From Planctopirus limnophila DSM 3776 (GTDB lineage Bacteria; Planctomycetota; Planctomycetia; Planctomycetales; Planctomycetaceae), in NCBI RefSeq assembly GCF_000092105.1, contig NC_014148.1, positions 3,600,001-3,632,000 on the forward strand: a DNA stretch of 32,000 nt, read 5' to 3'. Below are positions 2,187 to 9,963 of the stretch, one piece after another. The translations under genes were made by a program, and so were the position numbers. Positions within the stretch are counted from its first letter, which is position 1. Every line of letters begins with the position of its first letter. The notes under the pieces were generated by a model, which was not told the origin of the DNA, did no database searches, and was given only the letters and a program-made list of their open reading frames with translations.

Positions 2187-4388
2187 ATGACCGCCCCCTG
2201 CGATGCAAGTCGTCAACCATCAATTCCCATCGGAGAGATACTCGCCACGCCTGCTGGTTGGGGCGCCTCCATCGACCGGCCGAAAACTCCCTATTGCCCT
2301 GCCAGCCTGAGAGATCTATCGTTTTTGGCACACGGGATGCCTTCCTTCAGCATCGCAACAAAGGAATCGGCTAAGGATGGAGAAGCCAAATTGCCTGAAT
2401 TGACCTCTCGCGATGTCGCCATTTTACAGAGTTTGCCCTCGGGAGCTGAGGGTAACCAAAGAGCACAACTCCAGAACCAAAAACACGTTACACCGTCTTT
2501 CGCTCTGTTTCTGGCAAGTCTCGTTCTCGTAGGATCGCTTCTGGCCTCGGGATTGTCCATTTACGCCGCCCCTCCTCTTCATGTCGATCTCTCCACCGAA
2601 GTCGAGCCACCCGTTTCGGCAATGCTGCCACTTCCTGCAGCACCACTCGAAATGGCCATGTGGGCACCGGAGCCGATTGAAGGCTCTCTGGTGATTGCCG
2701 GTGGTGGCGTACTCCCTCCTGCGATTTTTGAAAAGTTTATGGAACTGGCGGGTGATTCGAAGGCACGGCTGGTCATCATTCCCACAGCCAGCATTTACGC
2801 GGGAACTCACGAGATTGAACCTAAGATCGACCCCTGGCGGCATCGAAATGCTGCCAGTGTCCACGTCCTGCATACCCGCTCGCGGGATGAAGCCAACTCC
2901 GAAGAGTTTTCCCAAATTCTGGATCAGGCCACGGGAGTCTGGTTCATGGGGGGCAATCAAAACTGGATCACCAGTGTCTACGCCGAAACTCGTACTGAAG
3001 CACGCCTGCGTGCACTGCTCCAGCGAGGCGGTGTGATTGGTGGGACATCTGCCGGTGCAGCTATCATGTCGCAAGTCATGATTACCGGCGGGAAATACTA
3101 CCCCCAACTGGGTGAAGGGCTCGGCTTCCTCCAAGGTGTGGTCGTCGATCAGCACTTCCTGAAGAGACAACGTGAGACGCGTCTGAAGTCGGCCCTCACA
3201 CTTCGCCCCGGCCATGTCGGTGTAGGTATCGACGAAGGGACAGCTCTGGTTGTTCAAGGTCGCCGGTTTGATGTCGTGGGTGAATCTGAGGTCGTCGTTT
3301 ATCTCCCGGAAAATTCCCGCAAACCACTCAAAGAAACCCGCATTTCCCATGGACGCTCGACAGATTTTGTGACCTTGTGCCGAGCGGCCATCGAACGCGC
3401 CGCTGAAGACAAACAGCCACTTGATCTTTCCCGGTCGGCTATCGCGAAAACGCAGGTTCCGCAGGGCACACTGGTCATTGTGGGTGGCGGTGCAACTCCA
3501 GCGGCTGCCATCGAGCGCTTCATCGAAGCTGCCGGTGGCCCGGAAGCCCCGATGGTGGTTGTGAGTAATGCCTTGGGAGACGAAGCCCCGCCTGCCTCAC
3601 AAGTCGTCAACTGGTTAACAAAAGCCGGTGCCCGTCATGTGAGCCAGTTGCATACGTCCTCCCGAGCCGAAGCTCACGATCCCGAGAAGGCCAAACTTCT
3701 GGAAACAGCCCGAGGGGTCTGGTTTACGGGTGGTCGCCAATGGCGGCTGGTTGACCGTTATCTCGACACGCCGATGCTGAGCCACTTTCAGAATGTGCTC
3801 AAACGAGGAGGCGTTATTGGCGGTACTTCCGCAGGTGCCTCGATTCAAGGGAGCTATCTCGTACGTGGTAATCCGGACGGAAATCGAGAAATCAGTGCCG
3901 AAGGTTACGAACGCGGCTTTGGTTTTCTCCCTGGCGTGGCGATCGATCAACATTTTTCCGAGCGACAGCGACTGGCCGATCTGGTCAGCCTCAAGACCCG
4001 GTACCCAGAACTGGTGGCCATGGGGATTGACGAATCGACGGCAGTGATCGTCAAAGGGACTCAACTCGAAGTCATCGGGAAGCAGACAGTAACCATTCTC
4101 GACCGAACTGAGTCTCATGATTCATCCGGCAGCGAACGGAGACTCGAACCCGCTGTCGTCCGCTCAGGGGAAGCCTATGACTTTGCCAGCCAGAAACGAA
4201 TCGCTATCGCAGACAAGTCAGCTCAGGTTGATTCTCCTGCCGTCACGATCAATTCGAGCTCGATCAATGTGACAGAGAATAAATCATCCGAGGCTGTCGA
4301 TCTTGAGAAAGATTTGGCCTTGCCAGCCACCGGCAACTCGCCCCCAGCACTCAAGCGACCCGCGATGCGCAATTCAGCAGGCCAATAA
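2187..4388 (+). CDS. Membrane-anchored protein with two tandem cyanophycinase-like (peptidase S51) domains
   Basis: There are two copies of the S51 signature set: VIAGGG...GGTSAGAAIMS...VVDQHFLKRQRETRL and VIVGGG...GGTSAGASIQG...AIDQHFSERQRLADL. One hydrophobic helix (FALFLASLVLVGSLLASGLSIYA) precedes them. The start is uncertain, with an alternative ATG at 2337. Confidence 0.8.
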   Translation: MTAPCDASRQPSIPIGEILATPAGWGASIDRPKTPYCPASLRDLSFLAHGMPSFSIATKESAKDGEAKLPELTSRDVAILQSLPSGAEGNQRAQLQNQKHVTPSFALFLASLVLVGSLLASGLSIYAAPPLHVDLSTEVEPPVSAMLPLPAAPLEMAMWAPEPIEGSLVIAGGGVLPPAIFEKFMELAGDSKARLVIIPTASIYAGTHEIEPKIDPWRHRNAASVHVLHTRSRDEANSEEFSQILDQATGVWFMGGNQNWITSVYAETRTEARLRALLQRGGVIGGTSAGAAIMSQVMITGGKYYPQLGEGLGFLQGVVVDQHFLKRQRETRLKSALTLRPGHVGVGIDEGTALVVQGRRFDVVGESEVVVYLPENSRKPLKETRISHGRSTDFVTLCRAAIERAAEDKQPLDLSRSAIAKTQVPQGTLVIVGGGATPAAAIERFIEAAGGPEAPMVVVSNALGDEAPPASQVVNWLTKAGARHVSQLHTSSRAEAHDPEKAKLLETARGVWFTGGRQWRLVDRYLDTPMLSHFQNVLKRGGVIGGTSAGASIQGSYLVRGNPDGNREISAEGYERGFGFLPGVAIDQHFSERQRLADLVSLKTRYPELVAMGIDESTAVIVKGTQLEVIGKQTVTILDRTESHDSSGSERRLEPAVVRSGEAYDFASQKRIAIADKSAQVDSPAVTINSSSINVTENKSSEAVDLEKDLALPATGNSPPALKRPAMRNSAGQ

Positions 4389-4424
4389 AGATTTGAACAG
4401 AGCGGCAGGTATTCGATTTTCAGG

Positions 4425-4450
4425 CATGCTTGCTCCGAGCCGCAAGCATG
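4425..4450. terminator. Hairpin between the convergent S51 gene and cysK (candidate bidirectional terminator)
   Basis: A perfect 9-bp stem, CATGCTTGC (4425-4433) pairing with GCAAGCATG (4442-4450), with an 8-nt loop. It lies in the 103-bp gap between two convergent stop codons. The flanking T-tract is weak. Confidence 0.4.
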
Positions 4451-4491
4451 TTACACAAAGCGCGTTAAATCGTGAAAACCGTACCAATGAT

Positions 4492-5436
4492 TCAGCTCTT
4501 GAGATCTTCGAACAGTGGTGTTGAAAGATAACGCTCACCTGGACTGCACAGCACAGTAACAATTGTTTTGCCTGCATACGCCGGTCGTGAAGCGACTTTT
4601 GCAGCGGCACAGACATTGGCACCACTGCTGATTCCGACGAACAGTCCTTCTTCTCTTGCCAGTCGGCGAGACCATTCGAACGCTTCGTCGTTGGTCACCG
4701 TGATCACTTCATCGATCAGCCGCGTATCAAGGTTTTTGGGAATGAAACCCGCACCAATTCCCTGAATTTTATGGATACCCGGGCCCCCACCGCTGAGCAC
4801 TGCCGAATGCACAGGCTCGACAGCGATCGCCTTGAATACGGGATTGTGGCGGCGGATGAATCTCGTGACCCCCGTAATCGTACCACCGGTCCCCACTCCC
4901 GTCACAATGGCATCGACTACCCCGGCACTGTCGGCCCAGATCTCAGGGCCAGTTGTGGCCTCGTGAATCGCCGGGTTCGCGGGATTTTCAAACTGCTGAG
5001 GCATCCAGGTCTGTTCGCTGGCCAAGACCAGTTCATGAGCCCTGGCAATTGCCCCCTTCATCCCCTCAGCAGCTGGTGTGAGCACCAATTCGGCGCCCAG
5101 CGCCTTGAGTAGAATTCGCCGCTCGGCTGACATCGACTCAGGCATGGTTAATGTCAGTCGGTAGCCTCTGGAAGCACAAAGAAATGCCAACGCGATCCCC
5201 GTATTGCCACTGGTTGGTTCGATGATATGTGTGGATCGGTTTAACTGGCCAGCCTTCTCGGCGGCGTCAATCATGGCTTTGCCAATTCGGTCTTTGACAC
5301 TGCCCAATGGCTGGAAAAACTCACATTTTCCGAGAACTGTCGCTCCTCCCTGAGAGGCAGTCTTCAGTTTGACCAGCGGAGTACGGCCAATCGTTTCCGT
5401 AATGTCGTTGAACACGCTTCCGTCGGGCATACCCAT
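4492..5436 (-). CDS. cysK: Cysteine synthase A (O-acetylserine sulfhydrylase), PLP-dependent
   Basis: The full-length pattern is CysK-like: [23 protein letters not shown] (PLP lysine), [23 protein letters not shown] and ISSGAN. The first ATG is at 5436; the tracked start at 5439 is TTG. Confidence 0.92.
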
Positions 5437-5490
5437 CAACTCTTTTCAGTCTGATGAACTCTAACGATAGAAAACCTAACCACCCGTTCC

Positions 5491-5502
5491 ATCGATATCG
5501 AT
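5491..5502. promoter_or_regulatory. Perfect 12-bp palindrome ATCGATATCGAT in the Rrf2-cysK intercistronic gap (candidate operator)
   Basis: An exact self-complementary 12-mer lies about 55 bp upstream of the cysK ATG and about 50 bp downstream of the Rrf2 stop. Rrf2 regulators bind inverted repeats. There is no direct evidence of binding. Confidence 0.25.
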
Positions 5503-5550
5503 TGAAAGCCGCCTCATACAAAGACCTGACATCAAGGCTGTGTGAGGCAG

Positions 5551-6015
5551 TCAGATGCCATCTCCACTGGCGAGTTCCAGAGCAAACACTTCGTGATCCT
5601 CGACGGGATCAAGATCAATCAGTCGCGCCAGCGTCATGTTGTCGAGATAACGGGAAGCAAAGTTGCGAATCTCCAGCAGCACTCGGCGAAAGCGGCATAA
5701 TCTCGCTTGAGAACATGGGCGATGAGCCGAAGTTGAGACACATGGCGAGGGAGCAATCACACCATCAAAAAAGCGAATGACCTGCCCCATAGTGATCTGC
5801 TCCGGAGGCTGAGCAAGAACATATCCGCCCTTTCGTCCCGGCGAACTCTCGATCCACCCCTGGGATTTCAGATCCAGAACAATATGTTCCAGAAACCGCT
5901 TGGGAGCATCATTCATTCGTGCCAACTCACTGAGCGAAATGGGACTTTCGCCAAACCTGGCTGCCAGCGTGATGAGTATCCGCAAGGCATAATCTGCTTT
6001 TCGAGAGAGTTTCAC
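5551..6015 (-). CDS. Rrf2-family transcriptional regulator (CymR/IscR-like), upstream of cysK on the same strand
   Basis: The N-terminal winged-helix signature is MKLSRKADYALRILITLA...ISLSELARMNDAPKRFLEHIVLDLKSQGWIESSPGRKGGYVLA. The start is GTG, with GAGG 8 nt upstream. Confidence 0.9.
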   Translation of the reverse strand: MKLSRKADYALRILITLAARFGESPISLSELARMNDAPKRFLEHIVLDLKSQGWIESSPGRKGGYVLAQPPEQITMGQVIRFFDGVIAPSPCVSTSAHRPCSQARLCRFRRVLLEIRNFASRYLDNMTLARLIDLDPVEDHEVFALELASGDGI

Positions 6016-6308
6016 CTGAGGACCTCAACACAAATAATTTATCTATCACCATATTTATCGTGTTTTATTTCTCTCGAAAAGAGGCTTGCCAGATTTTTTT
6101 TAGGAATTCCCTTAATCACATGCAGAAAAACAACTTAGGACAAAAGCATCCAGTCGAAAACAAACAACCTGAAATACCCATTCCCCCAAAACCAACCCAG
6201 GGGGTTGATTTCCGGCAATTCCTGACGTATTCTCTCAAGCGTAAACACCACCAAGTCGATGATATATTCGTGACCGGCGAAACCTTTCTGAAACCAAGTT
6301 GAGAAATC

Positions 6309-6581
6309 ATGGCACGCAACCGGCTGACCTCACCTGACCTGTTCGATCTGCAAGCAACTCTCCGTTTGCCTCTGGATCGAACAGCGGGTTGTCAGGCATC
6401 CGAGGAAATGCTGCCTGCAAATAGCCGCTGGCTGATGACCGGCTCGCATGCACCGGTTTCTTCCGTGGAAATTCCCGCATGGGCTCGGCCGATTTATGAA
6501 GCCGCTTTCCTGACAGCTCGCATCAAGGTCCGCAATCGAAAAGTTCTCGATGCCGCCCTCACCGGTACGATGATCAACTGA
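6309..6581 (+). CDS. Hypothetical small protein (90 aa)
   Basis: An ATG-initiated ORF with codon choice like the neighbouring genes (CTG, GCC, ACC, CGC), followed by a strong hairpin at 6623-6669. No recognisable motif. The overlapping minus ORF 6330..6662 is an alternative. Confidence 0.35.
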   Translation: MARNRLTSPDLFDLQATLRLPLDRTAGCQASEEMLPANSRWLMTGSHAPVSSVEIPAWARPIYEAAFLTARIKVRNRKVLDAALTGTMIN

Positions 6582-6622
6582 ATTCTCGACAGTTTGCTCT
6601 GCAACAATCAGCCTCTCCCTAG

Positions 6623-6669
6623 ATACAAGAAGAGCCGGAACCCAAGCAGGGAACCGGCTCATCTTGTAT
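6623..6669. terminator. Long imperfect palindrome, candidate bidirectional intrinsic terminator
   Basis: ATACAAGAAGAGCCGG (6623-6638) pairs with CCGGCTCATCTTGTAT (6654-6669), 15 of 16 bp. The loop holds a further CCC/GGG pairing. The outer A-rich and T-rich arm ends give an A-tract/stem/T-tract layout readable on both strands. Confidence 0.5.
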
Positions 6670-6807
6670 TTGAAACGCGACTCAATTGAATTTGTGCGAA
6701 CTCATAAATCTCGGAAGCATTCAGCTTCCTGGCGGCGAAAGATCCATTCGCAGATTAACGACTGACTCACATTCGCCGCCCTAATCCCCGCAAGGGGCCG
6801 CAAGGGG

Positions 6808-7233
6808 TTAGCAGCAGCAGACGGGCATGCCGTTGAAGCAGATGCAGCAGGTGCAGCCGCAGGCGACGAGAGCACAGCACTGATCGCAGCAGGCCTGAAT
6901 CATTTTGCAGCAGTCAGCATCGCCCGAAGTGCAGGTAATGCAGCAGCCATCGACTGTGGTCTCGCAAACGCACTTGCACATCGAAAGGTTGCAGCAGCAG
7001 ACGCAGTTCCCATTCTGCACGCAGCAGACACTGCATAAGCAACCGGCCGATTGAGCACAGAGGGCCTGAATCATGTTGCAGGTCAGTTCGTCGTCACACT
7101 TGCAGACGATCTTCATACCGCCAGCACACTTCTCAAGGGTAATTTTACACTTGGGAACTGTGAGGCAGTTGATCTGTGGTGCGGGAACTGCAGAAACCGG
7201 TGTGGCAGTGATTGGAGCAGTGGCTGTTGTCAT
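6808..7233 (-). CDS. Extremely cysteine-rich protein (141 aa, 35 Cys), two internal repeats, metallothionein-like composition
   Basis: ATG with AAGGA 8 nt upstream. The 35 Cys all fall in residues 23-141, including CC and CCC runs, and the protein ends in CCC. There is no His, Tyr, Trp or Arg and only one Phe. The internal duplication is visible at both protein and DNA level. No signal peptide. Confidence 0.75.
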   Translation of the reverse strand: MTTATAPITATPVSAVPAPQINCLTVPKCKITLEKCAGGMKIVCKCDDELTCNMIQALCAQSAGCLCSVCCVQNGNCVCCCNLSMCKCVCETTVDGCCITCTSGDADCCKMIQACCDQCCALVACGCTCCICFNGMPVCCC

Positions 7234-7413
7234 GTCATCAATCCTTTAAAGCTCAAGACGAACATAAGTGACTCGCTGACCATCCATCGCCGGCTGGGAC
7301 AGCACGCTCGTGATAATACAGTGGCTCACCACCTGCACAATCTCGACCTGAGTTGCGTATATTTCCCTGAGCGATCGCGGGGAGAGAGAAAAGCAGTTGT
7401 TTGCAGGATTCTC

Positions 7414-9777
7414 TCAGAACTCCAGCACCACATCGGCCAGCCGGGTTCGATCACCCGATTGCCGCAATTCTTCGAGCAGTGACCGCACATCGGGCACGAG
7501 AAAATCCCGGAACTTGCGACTGTTATTGATGGTGATGTTCACTCGCTCATCGATCTGAAAAGCTTCAGCGGCCAGTCGCACCACATGCCTTTTACCGGGC
7601 GAGGTAATGTACACGCTGTTCCCGGGCGTAATGCGGAACTTCATGATCTGTGGCGAAGGGAGGGTGGTTCCCGCAGGTTGCGGGATGATCAGCGTGCGCG
7701 GGAGATCGATCACACTCAGGCCAAAACAGCGGGAATCCGTCTTGCGAAGTGAAAGCCACTCGATATCTGCCGGAGCCGTACTGCGCGGATGCAGTTCCAT
7801 CCACTCGAACATGCGCGACATTTCGTCGGAGTACATTTCGAGGCCCCGGCCGTGAATCTGCACCAGCATGAGGTCATGCCGAAATCCCTCTTTGAACATG
7901 AACTCCAGCACATTGGCATTAATGCTCAACAAATCGCGGTCGAGCTCACCAGCCACCACGTACCAACTGGTGAAGCGAGCATTCCCTTTGCTGTATTTGC
8001 AGTAAGTATCAGCCCTGCCGCAAATGGGGATCACACCGGCAAACTCATCCGCATGCGACATCCCCATATCGAAGGCAGCGTCACCGCCCATGGCATGCCC
8101 GGCCAGATACACACGATCGGCATCGACGGAAAAACGCCCGCGCGCATCCGCGAGAGCGGCCAGCACCTTCAAATGGGCCACTCCTTCCCCATTGTATTTT
8201 GTCGCACCATCCGGCACATATTCCGGGGCAATCACAATAAACCCCCGGCGGCGGGCATTTCCGGGACGATCAGCAGTTCCCGCCCACCAGGTCGCAATGG
8301 CGGCTGTTGTGCGATCTTCCGGCCTTAAGGCGACAATCATCGGATAGCGATGAGCCGGGTCATACTCGGGTGGCAAAATCGCCTGATAATGAAAAATCAC
8401 TTCTCCGTTATCGCTGCGAAGTGTGATCTTGAGCATGTCATTGGCCAGGGGTTCCAGCACCTCGCCATCTGCCGAGATAACCTGACCAGGTTCCAGACCC
8501 GCCGAATCCCGAAAAGGTGGCAATTGAGGAATCATCTGGCGGATCGATTTCCAGCCCACTCCTTCGAGGGCTGTAAGCTGCCGGAGTGTATTCTCGCGGG
8601 TTTCTGATGATTCGGCTTTGAGGTACTGCAATACGAGCTGCTGGGCATCCCACAACACCATGGTCTTGGCCAGATCGGTAGAAGCACCGACCGATCCAAA
8701 CACCCATCCTGAAAAGGCGAGTGCGAGCTTTTCTTCTGCGGAAAGAGTGGAGTCTTTGTCGGACCTCAAAAAGGCTTCCAGCCTCGGCAACGTCTCAAAC
8801 GACAGACCATGGCTCACCTCCGACCTGAGAAGTGCCACACGCTCACGCAGCTCGCGATTCGCGATTTGTGCCTGATACTCACCCAACAGCAGGCGGGCCA
8901 GTTCGATCTGCTGGCGAGCCAGATCATACTGCTTGATAAAGGCCTCGATATCCCGCATCACCACTGGGCCCAGTTGCTCGGCAGGGGCCAGCCTGGCCAC
9001 GCTTTCGGCGAGCTGATGTTGACCTTGCTTCTTTCGCTCCTGCAGTTGTTTCACGAACTGTCGCCCGCGCAATTGAATCAGTTCGACCCGCATACGATCG
9101 ACCTGATCTTTGAGTTCGGGAAACTCCATCGCAACAGATTCCAACTCCTTTTGAGCTTCGGCATAGAGCTCGCCCTGCAGATAAAACCGGACAATCGCCA
9201 GTCGATCTTTGGGTCGAGTCGGGTCAATCGCCTTCCTCAGGATGTCACTCAGGATTTCCGTCGGCAAACTACTGGTTGCCACACCCGATTCCCACTGATG
9301 GGTGAGTGCATCAATGAGTGCGTATTTCGGGGTTAATCGACTGATCCCCTGAATCACATTCTCCGGCCCTTTTTGTGTGAGAATTTCCAGCCGCCGCCGG
9401 CCAAACTCATCAAAAGACGTCACATTTCGAAAGCCACCCAATTGAGCCAGCACCTGCTGCTTGCCGGTTTTATGATGCTTGAGCTCAAAGACTTCCCACG
9501 GGAACAGATCGGGCTGACCGACGGTTTTTTCTGCATCAGGGATCTGGCGTGTCGGTACAAAAATCTTTTGCCAGCCGGCATCCACCATAATGATGGGATA
9601 GATCGGAATCGGCCCCGGCGTCTTGGCCTGAAGTTGCGCAAGCCCCTGGATCGGTGTCGCCTTGCCGCTGATGATCATGCCATTCTTCAGGCGAATCTCA
9701 GCCCCGTGGGCACAGATCGCTTGATCGAAGCCGTTTGCCAGAAACATCACGAGAGCCATCAGGGCCATGAGTCTCAT
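7414..9777 (-). CDS. Secreted protein with a helical/TPR-like middle region and a C-terminal alpha/beta-hydrolase (esterase/PHB-depolymerase-like) fold; nucleophile position is Ala
   Basis: The signal-peptide-like N-terminus MRLMALMALVMFLANGFDQAICAHG begins at the ATG at 9777; the tracked start at 9864 is TTG. The hydrolase-like block is YPMIVALRPE...RRGFIVIAPEY...DRVYLAGHAMGGDAAFDMG...VVAGELDRD. Confidence 0.85.
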   Translation of the reverse strand: MRLMALMALVMFLANGFDQAICAHGAEIRLKNGMIISGKATPIQGLAQLQAKTPGPIPIYPIIMVDAGWQKIFVPTRQIPDAEKTVGQPDLFPWEVFELKHHKTGKQQVLAQLGGFRNVTSFDEFGRRRLEILTQKGPENVIQGISRLTPKYALIDALTHQWESGVATSSLPTEILSDILRKAIDPTRPKDRLAIVRFYLQGELYAEAQKELESVAMEFPELKDQVDRMRVELIQLRGRQFVKQLQERKKQGQHQLAESVARLAPAEQLGPVVMRDIEAFIKQYDLARQQIELARLLLGEYQAQIANRELRERVALLRSEVSHGLSFETLPRLEAFLRSDKDSTLSAEEKLALAFSGWVFGSVGASTDLAKTMVLWDAQQLVLQYLKAESSETRENTLRQLTALEGVGWKSIRQMIPQLPPFRDSAGLEPGQVISADGEVLEPLANDMLKITLRSDNGEVIFHYQAILPPEYDPAHRYPMIVALRPEDRTTAAIATWWAGTADRPGNARRRGFIVIAPEYVPDGATKYNGEGVAHLKVLAALADARGRFSVDADRVYLAGHAMGGDAAFDMGMSHADEFAGVIPICGRADTYCKYSKGNARFTSWYVVAGELDRDLLSINANVLEFMFKEGFRHDLMLVQIHGRGLEMYSDEMSRMFEWMELHPRSTAPADIEWLSLRKTDSRCFGLSVIDLPRTLIIPQPAGTTLPSPQIMKFRITPGNSVYITSPGKRHVVRLAAEAFQIDERVNITINNSRKFRDFLVPDVRSLLEELRQSGDRTRLADVVLEF

Positions 9778-9963
9778 CAGTTGGTTGAAAGATGAGATCC
9801 ACACTTTCAGCTCTTCCTCTTGTCCTCGAATTCGCAAAGTCTTTGACCGCCACACTTCAGTCAACCACTTTCATCAGCAGTGAGTATCAGCGAAAAATTG
9901 AGATCTGCAAAGAGGTTTATCGGCTCTGTCCTGCCGAGTGTAGCAGAACCTTTCCCTGATCCA

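Follow-up and report, generated by a model that had tools for sequence, protein, structure and literature searches.

A planctomycete family of cysteine- and methionine-rich proteins with a possible role in cysteine homeostasis

A 35-cysteine protein from Planctopirus limnophila

On the minus strand of a 32,000-nucleotide stretch of Planctopirus limnophila DSM 3776 (contig NC_014148.1, positions 3,600,001 to 3,632,000), a gene at 6808..7233 (stop codon included) encodes a 141-residue protein with 35 cysteines. The full stretch is called the window hereafter, and all coordinates refer to it. An earlier note made from the sequence had proposed that this protein sequesters soft metals or serves as a cysteine/sulfur reserve. 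The evidence collected here leans to the reserve rather than to soft-metal sequestration. The gene belongs to a family of sulfur-rich proteins encoded recurrently near genes of cysteine metabolism, and we tentatively suggest from this context that its product might be a sink or reserve for cysteine and methionine tied to cysteine homeostasis.

The coding sequence is supported by the open reading frame (ORF) list and its translation, by substitution rates and by homologues. Cysteine accounts for 35 of the 141 residues (24.8%), His, Tyr, Trp and Arg are absent and Phe occurs once, exactly as first described. The cysteines form 10 CC, 10 CxC and 6 CxxC motifs. Two CCC triplets had been reported in addition to a C-terminal one; such triplets are present, but there are only two in all (residues 79-81 and 139-141), the C-terminal one included. 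With 35 cysteines and 6 methionines the protein represents the Met-poor, Cys-rich extreme of its family. When compared with the 88%-identical copies in L006 and L085 (L-numbers denote genome loci of homologues, P-numbers homologous proteins), the gene shows a ratio of nonsynonymous to synonymous substitution rates (dN/dS) of 0.05-0.07 at a dS of about 1.0-1.2, and 35 of 35 cysteines are kept. Thus, both checks named in the earlier note, retention of the Cys columns and a dN/dS below 1 in relatives, turned out positive, and the ORF is a real gene under strong purifying selection.

The body of the protein had been described as a tandem duplication of about 57 residues, and statistics bear this out. 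Alignment of one half against the other gave a BLOSUM62 local score of 108, compared with 61 +/- 9 (maximum 93) for 500 shuffles, and in hhalign the family-wide profile of repeat 1 matched that of repeat 2 with a probability of 96% (E 2.9e-9). The duplication is also visible in the DNA. The repeat GCAGCAGCAGACG occurs at 6811 and 6991 and the repeat GCCTGAATCAT at 6893 and 7064, precisely where they had been placed, and neither occurs elsewhere within the window.

An AlphaFold2 model built with a 34-sequence alignment (mean predicted local distance difference test score (pLDDT) 75.7, body 81-90; predicted template modelling score (pTM) 0.64) shows an ordinary alpha/beta fold of eight strands and two helices. 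A disordered Thr/Ala/Pro-rich tail (residues 1-24, 7162..7233 on the minus strand, pLDDT <50) is followed by two successive units of beta-hairpin, helix and beta-hairpin. Repeat 1 (residues ~26-85, 6979..7158, minus strand) contains strands 30-36, 39-45, 67-73 and 76-82 around helix 49-62, and repeat 2 (residues 86-141, 6811..6978, minus strand) strands 87-93, 96-102, 128-133 and 136-140 around helix 106-124. Structure prediction, suggested earlier as a check, is in line with the two-repeat architecture. A Foldseek search with the model found no match in the PDB or BFVD (best E 0.57 and 0.33, TM-score <=0.36).

The first 22 residues are free of hydrophobic stretches, the maximum Kyte-Doolittle mean over 15 residues being 0.95. 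This agrees with the reported lack of a signal peptide, from which a cytoplasmic location of the protein can be inferred. A Cys-rich body behind a distinct N-terminal segment might also be expected of a modified-peptide precursor or of a secreted, disulfide-cross-linked envelope protein, and there are older reports of cystine-rich planctomycete envelopes. However, this explanation is very improbable, given that the protein has neither signal peptide nor hydrophobic segment, that the predicted fold is globular and that radical-SAM, YcaO, lanthipeptide and peptidase/export genes are not among the recurrent neighbours in the 80 loci described below. Assignment to the precursors of ribosomally synthesized and post-translationally modified peptides was rejected, as radical SAM, YcaO and LanM-type enzymes and export or peptidase genes are absent from the 25 commonest neighbour Pfam families of these loci and from the window.

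A sulfur-rich family and its predicted fold

Homologues were collected from 5.8 billion proteins at E <= 0.01, and details were taken from the 120 best matches listed. The search returned 583 homologues with a best E of 1.7e-70. Among the 120 matches listed, coverage is 80-100%, length ranges from 141 to 195 residues, proteins are called "hypothetical" where they are named at all and none has a Pfam domain. A profile search of 1.84 billion cluster representatives yielded just 199 matches, so the family is compact. The window protein is a regular member by its full-length homology, its two repeats and the motif series VPRC...GGMK...QNLC...NG...TSGD...MIQACC...PVCC. For this protein there was no match in Pfam-A (hmmscan, E <= 10, 0 families), in NCBIfam or among PDB sequences, and the literature search retrieved no paper on the family or on bacterial sulfur-storage proteins. 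Together with the empty Foldseek result these searches confirm that the protein fits no characterised family. The supposition of a possibly new family holds in so far as the family is unannotated; it is not a lone novelty.

Species-representative genomes contain 211 loci of the family, nearly all of them in Planctomycetota. The closest genome match is Planctopirus hydrillae JC280 (99%), and further matches come from Gemmataceae, Gemmata, Fimbriiglobus, Isosphaeraceae (Singulisphaera, Paludisphaera) and a few metagenome-assembled genomes (MAGs) of Thermoguttaceae and Pirellulaceae. The lineages with matches (Planctopirus, Gemmataceae, Isosphaeraceae) originate from soil, peat and freshwater. 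Several genomes hold two copies. A few MAGs with non-planctomycete labels also carry family members; these labels are probably binning errors because some of the neighbouring genes are of planctomycete type. Homologues of the protein were not found on plasmids.

On average, the 120 homologues consist of 17.6% Met and 17.0% Cys, and Cys+Met together reach 44% at most, with a median of 35%; the majority of members have about as much Met as Cys. Three types of composition can be distinguished: proteins rich in Cys and Met, proteins rich in Cys only (the window protein with 35 C/6 M; P0194 with 33 C/1 M) and proteins with mostly Met (P0153 with 40 M/15 C). The N-terminal tail is Met/Gly/Pro-rich in most members (MGMPGMG...), but Thr, Ala and Pro have replaced this Met-rich tail in the window copy. 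Ten divergent sulfur-rich members contain 27-35 cysteines each (or 15 C + 40 M), yet only three columns are Cys in all ten. These are C59, C116 and C139 of the window protein, the first two occupying equivalent positions in the two repeats. Pairwise overlap of Cys columns in the same ten proteins (Jaccard index) varies between 0.2 and 0.68. In divergent members the Cys/Met content is thus held more strictly than the position of these residues. The family alignment also contains conserved G/N/D/Q/T/S/P positions, which indicates that a folded product is maintained and not codon content alone.

Several paralogues are poor in cysteine. P0164, P0167, P0185, P0224 and the tandem protein P0177, recovered by the profile search, have only 6-9 Cys and few Met, but can be aligned with the profile over its full length. 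Where sulfur-rich members are >=70% Cys/Met (44 columns), these paralogues have mainly Leu, Ala, Ser, Thr, Ile and Val. The Cys-poor paralogues are therefore predicted to share the fold of the sulfur-rich members, and the fold is predicted to be independent of the cysteines. Because the Cys-poor paralogues fit the profile and Cys positions drift at a constantly high count, the sulfur residues look as if overlaid on a fold that is itself ordinary and whose interior and surface would have been filled with them.

The Cys-poor paralogues (also represented by loci L084 and L087) have C-terminal extensions, and each is followed by a gene of ~103 codons without assigned family. One of them lies after a gene for a SpoIIE-type phosphatase. 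Their contexts, i.e. short contigs with the SpoIIE phosphatase and the ~103-aa gene, gave no clue to the ancestral function.

Gene neighbourhood, expression signals and possible functions

Two genes for an Rrf2 regulator and cysteine synthase lie downstream of the Cys-rich gene on the same strand, as the earlier note had stated. The Rrf2-family regulator (5551..6015, minus strand; Pfam Rrf2 E 7e-35, NCBIfam rrf2_super above cut-off) comprises 154 residues with a C-x8-C-x5-C motif. It was followed by cysK for cysteine synthase A (4492..5439, minus strand; NCBIfam TIGR01139 436.6 bits with a cut-off of 351; Pfam PALP). The description of the regulator as CymR-like could not be substantiated. CymR (NF047409) is its closest model, yet the score of 81.5 bits is far below the cut-off of 195, and only the Rrf2 superfamily model passes.

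The synteny in relatives was assessed in a sample of 80 distinct genome loci, in which ORFs within 4 kb of the Cys-rich gene were clustered and the clusters named by Pfam; the counts for cysteine dioxygenase (CDO) and cystathionine gamma-lyase/synthase (CGL) were verified with tblastn searches of the complete loci, which extend up to 6 kb on each side. An Rrf2 regulator is present near the Cys-rich gene in 23 of the 80 loci, CysK or CBS (PALP with or without CBS domains) in 13, CDO in 11, an FAD/NAD(P)-binding partner of the dioxygenase in 12 and CGL in 7. At least one of Rrf2, CysK/CBS, CDO and CGL was found at 29 loci. The link of the Cys-rich gene to Rrf2 and cysK is conserved in relatives, with the order Cys-rich gene, small gene, Rrf2 and cysK in Planctopirus (window, L004-L006, L085, L086) and Cys-rich gene, Rrf2 and cysK in Gemmata (L024, L068). 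Orthologues of the window Rrf2 follow the Cys-rich gene on its downstream side in L004-L006, L024, L025, L028 and L068. In Isosphaeraceae-type loci, including those of related MAGs (L074, also L021, L054 and L070), an array of FAD/NAD gene, CDO, Rrf2 and small gene is divergent from the Cys-rich gene, which in turn is convergent with CGL-CBS; homoserine dehydrogenase is encoded nearby. Three classes of Rrf2 proteins accompany the family: the 154-aa window type with C-x8-C-x5-C (with cysK), a 149-aa type with the same spacing and a ~137-aa type without the motif (with small gene and CDO).

In Pfam tallies of the nearest neighbours, Rrf2, PALP, CBS, Cys_Met_Meta_PP and CDO_I rank top, and metal-homeostasis families are missing from the top 25 families of the 80 loci. 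Greedy ORF picking in high-GC loci is noisy and recovered 8 of the 23 Rrf2 genes, so these tallies serve just to rank families and to show the absence of metal families. A cluster of eight loci initially named as CysA sulfate transporter was withdrawn and the counts were redone without it, as it consisted mostly of generic ABC ATPases, the protein in L007 among them, and only one checked member (L037) had CysA-specific domains.

Several further features of these neighbourhoods deserve mention. The CDO gene is accompanied by a gene for a ~407-aa FAD/NAD(P)-binding protein (PF13454) in L014, L021, L023, L027, L045, L047, L054, L066, L070, L073 and L074, and L015 has the latter only; together the two proteins may constitute an uncharacterised unit of cysteine catabolism. 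Inspection by eye revealed no Rrf2 operator shared by the promoters of the Cys-rich gene and the Rrf2 gene of the window. A candidate for such an operator recurs only in the divergent regions between small gene and Cys-rich gene of Isosphaeraceae-type loci (L013, L021, L023, L051, L054, L070, L074), where an imperfect, AT-rich inverted repeat (GATCAnGAT...ATCATGATC) immediately precedes a -35-like box (ACTTGAA). Beside cysK in the window, two stretches of a 733-aa ORF (2187-4388, plus strand) match cyanophycinase (TIGR02069, 312 bits) and may represent a tandem. An enzyme mobilising the nitrogen reserve cyanophycin thus adjoins the locus of a putative sulfur reserve. Directly upstream of the Cys-rich gene, an 816-aa ORF (7414-9864, minus strand) without Pfam domain is conserved in L004 and L005 and has a weak, below-cut-off match to polyhydroxybutyrate-depolymerase-type esterases at residues 493-617. 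In 16 Gemmataceae loci (L019, L020, L033, L039, L049, L052, L053, L055, L056, L061, L063 and others) the next gene on the strand of the Cys-rich gene, ~100-280 nt past it, codes for a ~235-aa protein that has a signal peptide and fits no known family. Finally, L075 has five Acido-Lenti-1 RNA motifs (RF01687, 40.2 bits each) closely clustered on both strands at 2364-2717, upstream of the Cys-rich gene by ~3.3 kb.

Of all neighbours, a small gene on the opposite strand is the most constant one, detected with a hidden Markov model (HMM) in at least 49 of the 80 loci. Its product has ~75 residues (range ~70-90). In most cases the gene lies upstream in divergent orientation (at about -250 to -500 relative to the Cys-rich gene in L013, L019, L021 and others), and in some it is convergent and downstream. 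This partner family comprises 276 proteins, mostly of 69-76 residues and "hypothetical" where named, without match in Pfam or NCBIfam. Its members begin with M..NR[FLI], contain a central F..CP and end in W.QQ.Y..A.EQA.A..RPS..ER.....WN. A low-confidence model (pLDDT 63.6, pTM 0.27) predicts a mostly disordered protein with a C-terminal helix pair. In the window a 90-aa ORF (6309..6581, plus strand) lies between the Cys-rich gene and Rrf2, which is also where the small gene is found in L002. The frame is uninterrupted in L005 and L006, where both of its ends are conserved, and independent gene finders called a 92-aa gene at the matching place in L085 and L086. The ORF also has the residues that are invariant in the partner alignment (M1, R5, Y, A, A and the C-terminal N). 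The match of the ORF to the partner-family HMM was not significant; judging from position, conservation and shared residues, it is probably a diverged member of the family.

The constancy of this gene brings up a regulatory role instead of one in bulk, in which the Cys-rich protein together with its partner modulates the adjacent Rrf2 regulator, either by holding or donating an Fe-S cluster or as a translational gauge of Cys-/Met-tRNA supply. Such a role is compatible with Rrf2 being the next most frequent neighbour, with the C-x8-C-x5-C motif in the Rrf2 beside the window copy and with a partner that is largely disordered by prediction, as if folding on a target. It is highly unlikely, nevertheless. 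A gauge or adaptor needs neither 27-35 drifting cysteines nor the near-consensus strong promoter described below, the conserved G/N/D/Q/T/S/P positions speak for selection on a folded product, and the sequence has no Fe-S motif such as CxxCxxCxxxCP.

The expression signals of the Cys-rich gene were inspected in the window and in its relatives. A Shine-Dalgarno sequence of its own (AAGGA, 7242..7246, minus strand) is located 8 nt 5' of the ATG, in agreement with the initial reading, and AAAGGATTG is kept in L005 and L006. The proposed sigma70-like promoter TTGTGC-16 nt-TATTAT (7313..7340, minus strand) is also present. The block CTCAGGTCGAGATTGTG (7352-7336) at this site is invariant in L005 and L006, and the surrounding block is conserved in the 88%-identical relative. 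The candidate was not reported by the consensus promoter scan; its -35 box matches only 3 of 6 consensus bases, and the scan requires a minimum of 4. In the 5' untranslated region a block GGATGGTCAGCGA (7273..7285, minus strand) is invariant in the window, L005 and L006. About 150 nt past the stop codon, a terminator-like hairpin (GAGCCGG...CCGGCTC, 6621..6660, minus strand) precedes a T-rich run; its stem is conserved in L006, with differences in the inner stem and loop, and a terminator-like site (6634-6613) adjoins it. The hairpin and T-rich run after the stop codon mark the Cys-rich gene as a monocistronic unit.

Gemmataceae copies carry an A-rich upstream tract followed by TTGCAA-17 nt-TATAAT, a near-consensus promoter at the same place as the candidate promoter in the window. 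Directly after this promoter (TAAAATCGTTGCAA-17 nt-TATAATC) lies a leader hairpin with the core CCCGAnGGACGGG, whose outer stem covaries through compensatory changes. The exact core occurs once per locus in 13 loci (L011, L019, L020, L033, L039, L053, L055, L056, L064, L067, L079, L080, L082), always 5' of the Cys-rich gene and ~100-170 nt upstream. An exact counterpart of the hairpin was not found in the window, where only the related block GGATGGTCAGCGA resembles its loop and 3' arm. Rfam models identified no riboswitch or known leader in window positions 4000-8000, in eleven Gemmataceae loci or in the L067 leader region. The near-consensus promoter and structured leader of the Gemmataceae copies are signs of high expression and would fit a protein produced in bulk.

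Taken together, selection on sulfur content as part of a cysteine-managing circuit is favoured because Cys and Met interchange, their positions drift, the predicted fold is independent of them, the tail is Met-rich where it is unconstrained, the promoter looks strong and the neighbours make, convert or destroy cysteine. According to this proposal, cysteine would be polymerised into a compact Cys-rich protein whenever supply exceeds demand, which would keep free cysteine low, and proteolysis would return it during sulfur shortage. In most relatives the protein would serve as a reserve for methionine, too. The adjacent Rrf2-type regulators probably set expression, and the ~75-aa partner protein probably takes part. 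The stronger version, a dedicated bacterial storage or sink system for sulfur amino acids, in which an alpha/beta fold has been "sulfurised" to 30-44% Cys+Met, made in bulk at cysteine plenty and degraded at sulfur scarcity under the control of Rrf2 and the ~75-aa partner, is slightly less probable than a sink or reserve as such. The thiolates may well carry Zn or Cu in vivo, which would be compatible with a sink or reserve.

A number of points weigh against this interpretation. In 51 of the 80 loci there is no sulfur-metabolism or Rrf2 neighbour within 4 kb, and the adjacency of cysK could reflect just the cysteine needed to make a Cys-rich protein. CymR-type repressors of Bacillus control genes that are switched on at cysteine scarcity, which would be the wrong sign for a sink if the Rrf2 proteins here were of this type. 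We know of no dedicated sulfur-storage protein in bacteria, so the prior for a sink or reserve is low. Conservation of >=80% is seen for about 25 Cys columns in relatives of >=50% identity. Moreover, Cys and Met are the two ligands of Cu(I) and Ag(I), and the MxM/MxxM tails recall copper-handling proteins.

The last points lead to the most serious rival, a high-capacity soft-metal store or detoxifier for Cu(I) and possibly Zn/Cd. Here, a pre-folded scaffold would hold Cys/Met thiolate clusters, similar to Csp3 or to a large two-domain metallothionein, and a Met-rich tail would take up Cu(I) and pass it on. The abundance of CC, CxC and CxxC motifs, the near absence of aromatic residues and the absence of His fit such a protein, as do the conserved Cys columns just mentioned. 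The MGMPGMG tails of most members resemble established Cu(I) Met motifs, and Cys/Met interchange suits Cu(I)/Ag(I) ligation equally well as it suits sulfur content. There is also a precedent in the Csp copper-storage proteins, pre-folded and Cys-lined, which store 13-20 Cu(I) and have Met/His at the entrance (PMC7558416). As a Csp protein is such a pre-existing Cys-lined scaffold, the arguments from composition, fold independence and Cys drift leave room for a metal store. Against it stands the neighbourhood, in which cysteine-metabolism genes recur and P-type ATPase/HMA, MerR/CueR, CsoR, ArsR/SmtB and multicopper oxidase families do not reach the top 25 in the 80 loci. Furthermore, ten divergent members have only three Cys columns in common, the Met-rich tail is lost in the window copy, no plasmid homologue was found and Metallothio_Pro and Csp models do not match. 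We consider a metal store somewhat less likely than a sink or reserve on balance; the two functions are not mutually exclusive. Of the two possibilities raised originally, the reserve is favoured by the cysteine-metabolism neighbours, the ordinary predicted fold and the drifting cysteines, with the metal store as a serious competitor.

CBS and cystathionine lyase generate H2S and persulfides, and their genes among the neighbours draw attention to a protein-based thiol/thioether buffer, i.e. a sacrificial or recyclable sink for oxidants, electrophiles or reactive sulfur (e.g. persulfide/polysulfide carriage) that would be regenerated by thioredoxin and Msr. The very high density of Cys and Met would suit such a buffer, and the Rrf2 beside window-type copies has three cysteines like cluster- or redox-sensing members of its family. 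Nevertheless, a buffer is improbable: genes for thioredoxin, Msr, sulfide:quinone oxidoreductase, rhodanese and persulfide dioxygenase are not recurrent nearby according to the Pfam tallies, many cysteines would be buried in the predicted fold and none of our results speaks specifically for it.

Should the cysteine sink or reserve prove true, a new kind of reserve would join those for carbon, nitrogen, phosphorus, iron and copper in bacteria, namely a protein reserve of reduced sulfur, for which we know of no prokaryotic precedent among sulfur-amino-acid storage proteins. Excess cysteine is toxic, and how bacteria cope with it beyond export and degradation is poorly understood. If the protein stores copper or zinc instead, cytosolic metal storage would have a third structural solution besides metallothioneins and Csp proteins, one whose unusually high ligand density could be useful for metal capture. 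The question is testable in the culturable genera Planctopirus, Gemmata and Singulisphaera. In either case, the Cys-rich family, the small partner protein and the Gemmataceae leader hairpin have been without annotation so far.

Comparison with known cysteine-rich and sulfur-storing proteins

The expectation that neither SmtA/BmtA nor Csp proteins nor ferredoxins would accommodate the Planctopirus protein was borne out. A ferredoxin or polyferredoxin was rejected, as CxxCxxCxxxCP is absent from the translation and Pfam Fer4 does not match. The protein does agree with the broad compositional definition of a metallothionein, being small, with 24.8% Cys, one Phe and no Tyr, Trp or His. Like SmtA/BmtA/PmtA and MymT it is rich in cysteines that form CC, CxC and CxxC motifs, poor in aromatic residues and devoid of a signal peptide. 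However, bacterial metallothioneins are proteins of ~50-80 residues with 9-10 Cys plus His (SmtA) that fold only around the metal cluster. In contrast, members of the present family have 141-195 residues, are predicted to fold by themselves, show drifting Cys positions among divergent members and lack recurrent SmtB/ArsR-type neighbours. The ordinary alpha/beta fold of the model and the alignment of paralogues with 6-9 Cys along the whole profile speak indirectly against folding dictated by a metal. Membership in the SmtA/BmtA family itself was dismissed in the absence of a Metallothio_Pro match (Pfam-A, E <= 10) and of His, and with 141 residues compared with about 55 residues, 9 Cys + 2 His around a Zn4 cluster and a zinc-finger-like fold.

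If the protein stores metal, Csp proteins would be the best mechanistic analogue. Csp1 and Csp3 are likewise small, without His-rich sites and with many cysteines lining a fold that exists before the metal, and Csp3 is cytosolic. They differ in being tetramers of four-helix bundles with 13-20 Cys, whereas two repeats of beta-hairpin, helix and beta-hairpin with 27-35 Cys are predicted here. The family was not placed among the Csp proteins, given the lack of a Pfam match, the eight strands and two helices predicted and the lack of a PDB fold match.

For a cysteine sink or reserve, the analogy is to plant 2S albumins and delta-zeins, and it is functional only. These are compact proteins with Cys+Met far above the proteome average that provide a bulk reserve of reduced sulfur. 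They are non-homologous to the planctomycete family, eukaryotic, secretory and disulfide-bonded, and to our knowledge no bacterial counterpart of such sulfur-rich seed storage proteins has been described. On the regulatory side, the locus resembles CymR/CysK control in Bacillus and Staphylococcus in that an Rrf2 protein is encoded with cysK and with genes for the conversion of Met to Cys (CBS/CGL). The low CymR score of the window Rrf2 and its three cysteines at C-x8-C-x5-C set it apart, and we know of no Cys-rich protein among the members of the CymR regulon. Among Cys-rich thiolate proteins, the proteins presented here form a family not described before, whose predicted fold has no match and which has a partner gene of its own.

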